Origin: Escherichia coli
GTDB taxonomy: Bacteria > Pseudomonadota > Gammaproteobacteria > Enterobacterales > Enterobacteriaceae
Reading direction: 5' to 3' (one strand)
Length of the DNA: 64,000 bases
Assembly (NCBI RefSeq): GCF_041886205.1
Contig: NZ_CP169029.1
The notes below the pieces were generated by a model, which saw only the letters and a list, made by a program, of their open reading frames with translations, was not told the DNA's origin and made no database searches. Positions 5,993-8,758 of the stretch are shown here, in pieces; position 1 is the stretch's first letter, and each line of letters opens with the position of its first letter. The translations under genes were made by a program, and so were the position numbers.

Positions 5993-6212
5993 ATTGTACC
6001 TTTTTGATTAACCATTGGGGTGAGGGAACCCAATACGTACGACACGTCTGTTACCTTAACATAATAACGTGCTTACCCTTTTTTCGAGCCGCCGCATGAT
6101 ACTGCTTTACGTTGACAATGCAATGGTTAATTTTCACGCAATCGTTAACCTGGTTTGCTTACGGACTCACAGGGCGTAAACTAGCGCCGTTTTTTTATGT
6201 GATGAGAAGAAA

Positions 6213-6458
6213 ATGACCGATCTCTTTTCCAGCCCTGACCACATACTCGACGCACTTGGCCTGCGCTGCCCGGAACCCGTAATGATGGTGCGCAAAACAG
6301 TGCGCAATATGCAGCCAGGTGAAACGTTGCTGATTATTGCTGACGATCCGGCGACGACCCGCGATATTCCTGGGTTTTGTACCTTTATGGAACACGAACT
6401 GGTTGCGAAAGAGACGGATGGACTGCCTTATCGTTATTTGATTCGCAAAGGCGGTTGA
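6213..6458 (+). CDS. tusA: Sulfur carrier protein TusA
   Basis: 81 aa ORF with the LRCPEP active-site Cys motif; matches remembered TusA. Confidence 0.92.
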
Positions 6459-6502
6459 TGGGGGCTGATTGGCTTCGATGCCGCCTTTTCCCCTCACCCT
6501 AA

Positions 6503-6556
6503 CCCTCTCCCCAGAGGGGCGAGGGGACCGATCGCGCTCAATGTTGCGATCGGTTT
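6503..6556. terminator. Two adjacent hairpins between convergent tusA and zntA (likely bidirectional terminator)
   Basis: Inverted repeats ccctctcccc/ggggcgaggg (6503..6525) and accgatcgc/gcgatcggt (about 6527..6556) sit between the two stop codons. Confidence 0.5.
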
Positions 6557-6559
6557 GCC

Positions 6560-8758
6560 TTATCTCCTGCGCAACAATCTTAACGCATTCGCCGTCACCA
6601 GCACCGTCGCACCCGTATCTGCCAGCACCGCCAGCCACAACCCGGTCATCCCTAACAGCGTGGTGACGAGGAAGATCCCTTTCAGCCCCAGCGCAATGGT
6701 GATGTTCTGGCGGATATTGGCGTGAGTGGCGCGTGCCAGTTCAATCATTTGCACCAGGCCGCGCAGGTGGTTATGGGTTAATGCTGCGTCGGCGGTTTCC
6801 AGCGCCACGTCTGTGCCACTGCCCATTGCAATCCCAATGGCGGCAGCTTTCATCGCTGGCGCGTCGTTAATACCGTCACCGACCATCGCCAGCGGCGCAT
6901 GTTGATTCAGCTCGGTCACCGCTTTGACTTTATCTTCCGGCAACAGGCCCGCTTTAAACTCCAGCCCCAGCTCCCCGGCAATTGCCGCCGCTGCGCGTGG
7001 ATTATCGCCGGTGAGGATCACTCCTTTAACCCCCAGCGCGTTCAGTTCACTGATGGCAGTTGCAGCGTCGGCGCGCAGGGTATCCTGCAATGCAATGATA
7101 CCCAGCACGTCATCATTACGTACTACCAGCACAACCGTTTGCCCGGCGCTTTCCAGTTCATTAATCAAACCAGCAAATGCATCAGCGGGATGTTTCCCGG
7201 CAGCGCAAATCAATACGCGCTCACCGTTAACCTGCGCTTCAATGCCAGACCCGACCAGCGCCCGCTGTGATTCGGCGGCGGGAATGGCGAGTGCAGCAAC
7301 CTGTGCTTCGCGCACGATGGCTTGCGCCAGTGGATGCGTCGCGCCTTGCTCGACCGCCGCCGCCAGTGTCAGCAGTTCAGATTCACTAATACCCGTTGCC
7401 GGATGAATCGCGGTAACGCGCGGTTTACCGACGGTCAGCGTACCGGTTTTATCAAACGCCACCTGAGTAACACGACCTAGTTGTTCCAGCGCCGCTCCGC
7501 CTTTAATCAACGCCCCACGACGCGCTGCTGCCGCCAGCCCGGAGGTAATCGCCGCGGGCGTGGAGATAACTAACGCACACGGGCAGCCAATCAGCAGCAG
7601 CGTCAGGCCTTTATAAATCCACTCCTGCCAGCTGGCGGCAAACAGCAGCGGTGGCACCAGCGTCACCAGCAGGGCGACGGCCATAATCGCTGGCGTATAA
7701 ATACGGCTGAAACGGTCGATAAACCGCTCAATGGGGGCGCGGCGCTCTTCGGCTTCTTCGATCAGTTTCAGAATCCGGTCAATGGCGCTGGCACCCGGTT
7801 CTGACAGCACTTCCAGCGTTACCAGACGGTCTACGCTGGTGGCTCCTGCAGGAACTTTATCGCCCGTTGCGCGCTCCACCGGAATGGATTCTCCGGTCAG
7901 GGCGCTTTCATCAAAACTGGCAAACGGTGAGAGCAGTTTACCGTCGGCAGGCAAACGCCCACCTGCGGCGACTTCAATCACATCGCCAGGCCGCAGGCTG
8001 TTAATCGCCACCTCTTCCCGCTCACCGTTACGCAGGCGCGTGGCGGTTTCTGGTTTCAGCGCCATTAAAGCGCTAACGCCCTGACGCGCGCGGCTGGCGG
8101 CCCAGCCTTCCAGTCGTTCACCAATCAAAAACAGCAGCAACACCATCGCAGCTTCAGCCGTTGCGCCAATAAACAGTGCACCAATAGCGGCTACGCTCAT
8201 TAAGGTTTCAATGGCGAAGTAGCTGCCGGATTTGATCAGCCGTAATGCCTGACGAGCAATCGGGTACAGCCCAACCAGCGTGGTCGCGATAAACGCCAGT
8301 TGCCCGAACGGATGATTAAATTGCTCCAAACCCCAGCTGATTGCCATCATCACGATAAGCGTAATCAGCGGCAGATTCTCTTTCAGGCGCGATGCTTGTG
8401 GCTCGTCGGCGGCCTGCTCATCGCGCAGGGAATAGCCCGCTTTTTGCACCGTAGATTCAACCTGGGCACGGATGTCATTGTCGGCATCAACCACCAGTTT
8501 TTCGGTGGCGAACAACACCTGCACCTGATTCACGCCTGCAAGCTGGCGCACGGCATTTTCTACCTTGCGCGCACAGGCGGCGCAGTCCATGCCGCTGACT
8601 TTCCAGCTATAGCGGGTGCCGGAGACGTTTTCAGAGAGCGTTGGCGAGCTGGAACATGCGCCGTCGCAGCAACAGTCGTTGGCGTTCTGTACCGTGGTTA
8701 GCGGTTTGAACGCAGCAAATTGAGGGGCTTTCTTGCCGTGATTGTCAGGAGTCGACAT
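6560..8758 (-). CDS. zntA: Zn/Cd/Pb-translocating P-type ATPase ZntA
   Basis: 732 aa ORF with N-terminal CCCDGAC and GMDCAAC metal-binding motifs, CPC transmembrane motif and DKTGTLT phosphorylation motif. Confidence 0.95.
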   Translation of the reverse strand: MSTPDNHGKKAPQFAAFKPLTTVQNANDCCCDGACSSSPTLSENVSGTRYSWKVSGMDCAACARKVENAVRQLAGVNQVQVLFATEKLVVDADNDIRAQVESTVQKAGYSLRDEQAADEPQASRLKENLPLITLIVMMAISWGLEQFNHPFGQLAFIATTLVGLYPIARQALRLIKSGSYFAIETLMSVAAIGALFIGATAEAAMVLLLFLIGERLEGWAASRARQGVSALMALKPETATRLRNGEREEVAINSLRPGDVIEVAAGGRLPADGKLLSPFASFDESALTGESIPVERATGDKVPAGATSVDRLVTLEVLSEPGASAIDRILKLIEEAEERRAPIERFIDRFSRIYTPAIMAVALLVTLVPPLLFAASWQEWIYKGLTLLLIGCPCALVISTPAAITSGLAAAARRGALIKGGAALEQLGRVTQVAFDKTGTLTVGKPRVTAIHPATGISESELLTLAAAVEQGATHPLAQAIVREAQVAALAIPAAESQRALVGSGIEAQVNGERVLICAAGKHPADAFAGLINELESAGQTVVLVVRNDDVLGIIALQDTLRADAATAISELNALGVKGVILTGDNPRAAAAIAGELGLEFKAGLLPEDKVKAVTELNQHAPLAMVGDGINDAPAMKAAAIGIAMGSGTDVALETADAALTHNHLRGLVQMIELARATHANIRQNITIALGLKGIFLVTTLLGMTGLWLAVLADTGATVLVTANALRLLRRR

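Follow-up and report, generated by a model that had tools for sequence, protein, structure and literature searches.

What are the inverted repeats that lie between the convergent stop codons of tusA and zntA in Escherichia coli, and do they end transcripts, stabilise them, or neither? The window, meaning the whole 64,000-nt stretch of E. coli DNA that was analysed, carries tusA (encoding the sulfur carrier TusA, 81 aa) at 6213..6458 on the plus strand, with its TGA stop at 6456-6458, and zntA (encoding a Zn/Cd/Pb P-type ATPase, 732 aa) at 6560..8758 on the minus strand, with its stop at 6560-6562. These open reading frames bound a spacer of 101 nt (6459-6559) on its left and right, respectively. 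The spacer is 99% identical to that of K-12 MG1655, where the neighbouring genes are b3470 (the tusA stretch is likewise 99% identical) and, by the K-12 annotation, b3469 for zntA.

A BoxC repeat between tusA and zntA

A first-pass annotation had described two strong inverted repeats between the convergent stops, and both are present. In the first, CCCTCTCCCC (6503-6512) and GGGGCGAGGG (6516-6525) flank an AGA loop and form 9 of 10 pairs, the exception being a T.C mismatch; the same G-block can instead pair with another arm, CCCCTCACCC (6490-6499). The second, hereafter hairpin 2 (6527..6554), joins ACCGATCGC (6527-6535) to GCGATCGGT (6546-6554) by 9 of 9 pairs across a 10-nt loop. RNA folding of the spacer together with both stop codons (6456-6562, 107 nt) gave -49.9 kcal/mol on the plus strand (z = -3.9) and -47.6 kcal/mol on the minus strand (z = -3.2). 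This is far better than shuffled sequence, 0 of 200 shuffles folding equally well on either strand.

The first hairpin is a known dispersed repeat, described under the names BoxC, PIT, TMECO and HPG1. Its core, 6490..6525 on the minus strand, reads CCCTCGCCCC-TCT-GGGGAGAGGG-TTA-GGGTGAGGGG, contains the hairpin at 6503-6525, and folds as RNA with -26.2 kcal/mol on the minus and -21.1 kcal/mol on the plus strand. The TMECO consensus published by Holder et al. 2015 (PMC4666352), CCCTCNCCC-N3-6-GGGNGAGGG-N3-GGGNGAGGG[G/T/C], is matched exactly at 6491-6525 on the minus strand, with a further G at 6490, and chance alone would give 0.00 matches in the window. Read from 6525 to 6490, the window corresponds base for base to K-12 3,608,684-3,608,719, an identical 36-nt sequence listed as TMECO no. 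16, 'type A mm', in Table 1 of Holder 2015 (PMC4666352); the designation fits a type A core with one mismatched triplet, and the second core loop, TTA, is the hallmark of the type A subtype. In Kaplan 2016 (PMC5100583) this copy appears in group HPG1 as HPGQ no. 40, with a midpoint at 3608708, 48 nt from zntA and 32 nt from tusA. The TMECO motif is the same as the BoxC of the 1990s and the PIT element of Hoyne and Maher (Holder 2015, PMC4666352), and a table quoted in PMC2267715 gives BoxC (Bergler 1992; Bachellier et al.) as 56 bp with 32 copies. Because of the exact consensus match and the mapping to TMECO no. 16 and HPGQ no. 40, both the element and this particular copy are to be regarded as already catalogued; the element is real but ordinary, its family having been described four times.

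The motif quoted in the first-pass annotation, ccctcaccctaaccctctcccc (6491-6512; ~0.00 chance matches expected in the window), had been likened to a short repeat family of E. coli intergenic regions, and this likeness proved correct. With the 101-nt spacer as query, matches were found at a median of 19 places per genome (range 2-35) in 5,425 of 5,426 complete E. coli genomes, so that the motif is multi-copy rather than unique. All 14 of the other K-12 type-A loci that were fetched are intergenic, and no second BoxC copy was found in the 64-kb window, the family being dispersed and not clustered. The spacer copy is thus a member of a family whose copies are likewise GC-rich imperfect palindromes, strictly intergenic and present in tens per genome. 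The further statement that the region does not look like a canonical REP was also upheld: the REP consensus (a GCCGGATGCGGCG...CTTATCCGGCCTAC palindrome) had no match in the window at up to 3 mismatches, and the spacer is unrelated to it by inspection. Rfam holds no model for the BoxC repeat, and a scan of 6000-7000 at a permissive E-value returned chance-level matches alone, with E-values of at least 2.6 and scores far below the gathering thresholds.

A 65-aa, TTG-initiated ORF at 6469-6666 on the plus strand crosses the BoxC core (...PFPLTLTLSPEGRGD...) before running antisense to zntA, and is therefore treated as spurious, which it very likely is. Any BoxC copy can give rise to mis-called ORFs of this kind.

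Extent of the repeat unit and the hairpins at the two gene ends

The 15 K-12 type-A copies (the spacer copy and the 14 other loci) were aligned in register. Conservation extends past the 36-nt core, with a 15-copy consensus of CAAAAAnGnGCnCGnACGGTC before the core and GAACAGnCCnGCACnG after it, and defines a unit of ~70 nt. In the window the full type-A unit occupies ~6476..6545 on the minus strand (the boundaries are approximate) and comprises the core, a conserved 5' flank of ~20 nt (6526-6545, minus strand, AACATTGAGCGCGATCGGTC) and a conserved 3' flank of ~14 nt (6476-6489, minus strand, AAAAGGCGGCATCG). The flanks of the spacer copy fit the type-A consensus (...GnGCnCGnACGGTC before the core and GAAnAGnC.. 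after it). Older descriptions of BoxC as 50-56 bp agree in scale with this unit, whereas the PIT (Hoyne, Maher et al. 2000, 2002) and TMECO papers define the 34-37-nt core alone; here the conserved flanks join two further hairpins.

Hairpin 2 folds with -18.6 kcal/mol on the plus and -15.2 kcal/mol on the minus strand (z ~ -3.3). Given a unit of ~70 nt, its arm at 6527-6535 belongs to the BoxC 5' flank, while the arm at 6546-6554 lies outside the conserved flank and adjoins the zntA stop. Since one of its arms lies inside the conserved flank of the repeat, the two adjacent hairpins of the first-pass annotation, both of which exist, are not independent units. BLAST searches in E. coli found a single copy each of the 37-nt stretch over hairpin 2 and of the 34 nt that adjoin it on the side of the core facing tusA. 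We rejected the notion that hairpin 2 is wholly locus-specific: it is single copy by BLAST, but its proximal arm is repeat flank, and the BoxC copy between yjdP and phnP has the distal part as well. Hairpin 2 is therefore half repeat flank and half locus sequence. The yjdP/phnP copy matches the distal part at 14 of 17 positions, a score equalled by 2 of 2000 shuffles, and the hairpin is not formed there. As this copy has the extended distal flank of BoxC (CGATCGCAACATT) too, some copies have still longer common flanks.

A third hairpin, missed in the first-pass annotation and here termed hairpin 0, spans the tusA stop at 6447..6488 and pairs AAAGGCGG (6447-6454) with CCGCCTTT (6481-6488). Its arms are the last tusA codons (Lys-Gly-Gly) and the BoxC 3' flank, to which the arm at 6481-6488 can be assigned because the unit measures ~70 nt, and its 26-nt loop has inner pairs. 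The hairpin is followed by TTTT on the plus strand and TTTG on the minus strand and is preceded by an A-tract on the plus strand. The fold of the region (6440-6500, -22 kcal/mol) is not significant on its own, with z = -1.2, and hairpin 0 is a weak candidate for a two-way terminator.

The spacer copy is a solo type-A unit, unlike the inverted arrangements of paired type-A and type-B copies at five K-12 loci (L093-L097: hrpB/mrcB, fepB/entC, ygfF/gcvP, alx/sstT and lldD/trmL). These pairs have conserved inter-copy spacers in common (gaacaggccagcac.ggtgcgaa...), with outer flanks of gatgacaaag..caaaaa on the A side and ttttct on the B side. Each pair resembles a single composite palindrome of ~130-140 bp, and solo type-A copies, the spacer copy among them, would be its halves.

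Variation of the spacer among genomes

A comparison of 80 tusA loci in other Enterobacterales showed that the tusA-zntA junction can be anything from an overlap of the stop codons (e.g. in Kosakonia and Pantoea) to a spacer of more than 1 kb. The palindromes in the spacer differ by genus, being REP-like in Citrobacter and Klebsiella and type-B BoxC or its remnants in Enterobacter; in one Citrobacter spacer (L026) a REP-like hairpin stands between T- and A-runs in a classic two-way terminator layout. A Pseudocitrobacter MAG has an identical type-A BoxC and a long-loop hairpin 2 at the same site, and E. albertii (L004) has a decayed BoxC, a hairpin 2 with a longer loop, a REP and extra ORFs. At the site of hairpin 0 both have a different hairpin, GGCGGT...ACCGC[C].

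Within E. coli, a REP/BIME insertion of ~167 bp is present in 528 of 5,426 genomes (~10%, including Nissle 1917). It replaces the zntA-proximal (distal) arm of hairpin 2, thereby disrupting the hairpin, and lengthens the spacer from 101 to 268 nt. The two other alleles that were inspected, from E. coli MSHS 133 and AR_0069, have a G-to-A change in the core, which makes a G.U wobble in the zntA-sense RNA and a C.A mismatch in the tusA-sense RNA. The site behaves as a dumping ground for small repeats and not as a conserved regulatory module.

The REP/BIME allele of E. coli MSHS 133 (L002, 420-598) comprises two REPs of the tgtaggccggataagg... type and one of the gcctgatgcgacgc type. Long spacers were seen in E. 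albertii L004 (1447-2557, 1111 nt) and in L005, an Escherichia labelled E. coli SCPM-O-B-8794 (1447-2240, 794 nt), the latter having no BoxC match. Both appear to hold small ORFs with hydrophobic products, which in E. albertii follow the decayed BoxC, hairpin 2 and the REP.

Termination, 3'-end protection and DNA structure

The first-pass annotation had proposed that the region may act as a bidirectional terminator or as an mRNA stabiliser. For the repeat itself the first of these roles was not borne out. The BoxC hairpin has no U-tract on either strand (its tails are GACCGATC on the plus and TTAGGGTG on the minus strand), and a consensus terminator scan found no site in 6459-6559. As summarised in Holder 2015 (PMC4666352), the work of Hoyne and Maher found no promoter or terminator activity for PIT elements, which by the same summary block DNA polymerase in vitro and have no effect on RNA polymerase, reverse transcriptase or conjugation. 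In published Term-seq data (Adams 2021, PMC7815308), the adk 3' end at 497939/40, a canonical hairpin followed by TTTT, lies 60 nt beyond the adk BoxC copy (497843-497878, in the same sense as in zntA mRNA), and transcription therefore reads through that element. The BoxC core is probably not an autonomous terminator.

Mapped 3' ends were also consulted for the spacer itself. The curated Term-seq set lists none at K-12 3,608,500-3,608,899 (Adams 2021, PMC7815308), although this is weak evidence, even uninformative, because tusA and zntA are poorly expressed in the sampled conditions; the supplements of Yan 2018 and TERMITe 2025 do not mention either gene. On the tusA strand, ~800 nt after the stop codon of tusA, a bicyclomycin-sensitive Rho region (Rho score 2.93) was mapped at 3607955, with 90 reads upstream versus 24 downstream without bicyclomycin and 128 versus 100 with it (Adams 2021, PMC7815308). 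Transcription therefore continues past the spacer, or else an antisense promoter lies inside zntA; the Rho region, being within antisense zntA, could be fed by such a promoter rather than by tusA read-through.

Evidence for what a BoxC hairpin might do at a transcript end comes from lldD, whose primary 3' end (3781065) is located 4 nt past its BoxC hairpin, which has the C-rich sense seen in tusA mRNA (Adams 2021). This end falls inside a Rho termination region ('Yes'), and its intrinsic terminator score, 1.32, is below the threshold of 3.0. Rho-dependent termination followed by exonuclease trimming back to a stable hairpin would produce this pattern, in what is a single case. At further BoxC loci (tauD/hemB, fabI, pstA/B, aaeR/tldD, fimH/gntP, gcvP and alx) the Term-seq data list nothing. 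A separate, very abundant 'orphan' 3' end at K-12 624680 on the minus strand (~103,000 reads; Adams 2021) lies in the fepB 5' UTR, 170 nt before the start codon, at the A+B locus L094, and precedes TMECO no. 8, a type-B BoxC copy (624,676-624,641), by 4 nt.

We consider that the spacer is essentially one solo type-A BoxC of neutral or selfish character, whose hairpins are probably passive 3'-end barriers and whose core is no autonomous terminator, and we give this reading a probability of about 0.8. BoxC would here be a neutral or selfish dispersed repeat without a dedicated function at tusA-zntA. In the zntA sense, its core reads as a C-block followed by two G-blocks, each of 9-10 nt, giving one strong hairpin and, in vitro, a triplex or G-quadruplex, and its conserved flanks pair with neighbouring locus sequence in hairpin 2 by the zntA stop and hairpin 0 over the tusA stop. 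Since BoxC would be transcribed into both 3' UTRs, these very stable hairpins are probably passive barriers to 3'-to-5' exonucleases, which would fix where the mature 3' ends lie once transcription had stopped further downstream, inefficiently or through Rho; the U-rich tail of hairpin 2 may add weak intrinsic termination, for tusA only. The neutral or selfish character is most likely in view of the variable spacer, the genus-specific palindromes and the BIME insertions in 528 of 5,426 E. coli genomes. REP hairpins protect mRNA from 3' exonucleases, and this is the role we infer for BoxC here; the alternative role offered in the first-pass annotation, that of an mRNA stabiliser, is plausible. 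REP/BIME elements (PU) are likewise small palindromic intergenic repeats, often at gene 3' ends and between convergent genes, but their sequence is unrelated to the spacer BoxC, beside which true REPs have inserted in ~10% of E. coli genomes.

We know of no function established for BoxC in 30 years, and the present locus matters little in itself, as the literature already covers both the element and this exact copy. The analysis is of minor use in giving a repeat unit of ~70 nt, larger than the published 36-nt core, in finding that the repeat flanks build neighbouring hairpins at tusA-zntA, and in drawing from Term-seq one case of read-through (adk) and one 3' end at the base of the hairpin in a Rho region (lldD). 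Together these point to passive, REP-like protection of mRNA ends.

The foremost alternative is that the spacer is a bidirectional intrinsic terminator, at least one of its three hairpins stopping polymerase in both directions, perhaps together with head-on collisions. No more than 101 nt separate the two convergent genes, the hairpins fold very stably on either strand, and intrinsic terminators are likewise GC-rich stem-loops at convergent gene ends. On the plus strand, the tusA sense, hairpin 2 is followed by TTTGCCTTAT (6555-6564), in which the tail TTTGCCTT has 5 T in 8, and it fails the scan on loop length alone, its 10-nt loop exceeding the limit. Hairpin 0 has its upstream A-tract with TTTT on the plus and TTTG on the minus strand, and the Citrobacter spacer has its two-way terminator layout. 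However, a U-tract is lacking in the zntA direction both after hairpin 2, where CCCCTCGCC follows, and after the BoxC hairpin; the scan picked out no site in the spacer, and no 3' end is listed there. Moreover, PIT/BoxC elements had no terminator activity in the assays as cited by Holder 2015, adk mRNA passes through its BoxC copy, Rho-dependent termination occurs ~800 nt downstream on the tusA strand, and hairpin 2 is broken by a BIME in ~10% of E. coli genomes. Two-way termination is thus unlikely, and hairpin 2 is at best a weak one-way terminator, for tusA only.

A slightly less likely possibility is action at the DNA level, in which a triplex of the G-rich strand or a G-quadruplex/hairpin switch stalls polymerases, promotes rearrangement or regulates the neighbouring genes (Holder 2015, Kaplan 2016). 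Oligonucleotides of the same class (type A, one mismatch) form triplexes by CD and NMR, with a Tm of ~74 C, and cause polymerase stops in primer extension; TMECO loci vary more than control sites in 56 strains; and ion-dependent switching between G-quadruplex and hairpin was seen by CD for the HPG1 motif (Kaplan 2016, PMC5100583), in which the spacer copy is catalogued. The locus is also structurally variable, with the BIME insertion, the G-to-A change in the core and the 0.8-1.1 kb insertions in E. albertii and another Escherichia. On the other hand, DMS footprinting in vivo did not point to a stable triplex (Holder 2015, PMC4666352), addition of the complementary strand restores the duplex, and Hoyne and Maher saw no effect in vivo, as reported in Holder 2015. 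With G-quadruplex terms included, ViennaRNA (an RNA energy model) prefers the hairpin (-26.2 kcal/mol) over the G-quadruplex (-12.6 kcal/mol) when the C-block is present, and we rejected the G-quadruplex as the dominant RNA fold. Convergent spacers gather REP-type repeats in many genera without any BoxC, so that variability need not come from the element. Formation of triplexes and G-quadruplexes in vitro leaves a DNA-level role with a small probability.

It is more doubtful again that the conserved flanks were co-opted to base-pair with the final codons of tusA and with the 9 nt by the zntA stop, forming a selected three-hairpin module that insulates the two genes and defines their 3' ends. 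If true, such a module would serve two convergent genes that have overlapping stop codons elsewhere in the Enterobacterales. At two positions the flanks depart from their consensus in ways that may favour pairing with the gene ends, and these substitutions, which improve pairing with the end of tusA, could hint at selection for structure, as could the recurrence of BoxC with hairpin 2 at the same site in E. albertii and the Pseudocitrobacter MAG. A corollary would be that BoxC spreads as longer units than those catalogued, and the yjdP/phnP copy has the distal flank too.

Nothing favours the view that the inverted repeats arose by chance in a GC-rich spacer, even though hairpin 0, taken alone, does not differ significantly from shuffled sequence (z = -1.2), and the multi-copy result refutes it, a motif expected 0.00 times by chance recurring ~19 times per genome and 0 of 200 shuffles folding as well on either strand.

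Two further repeats and one further hairpin were noted around the spacer. A 13-nt inverted repeat (6402-6414 / 6563-6575, 85% complementary) bridges the whole spacer from the 3' coding end of tusA to that of zntA and serves as the closing helix in minimum free energy folds of the extended region, and a 9-nt direct repeat, TGCCTTATC, has one copy inside tusA (6424-6432) and one across the zntA stop (6556-6564); both may be due to chance. In the 5' leader of tusA, a terminator-like hairpin, GGCGTAAACTAGCGCC followed by GTTTTTTTAT (6173-6198, plus strand), ends ~15 nt before the ATG at 6213. No Term-seq 3' end is listed at its K-12 equivalent, 3,608,9xx-3,609,1xx (Adams 2021), and the hairpin could be a leader attenuator or mark the end of a short upstream transcript.
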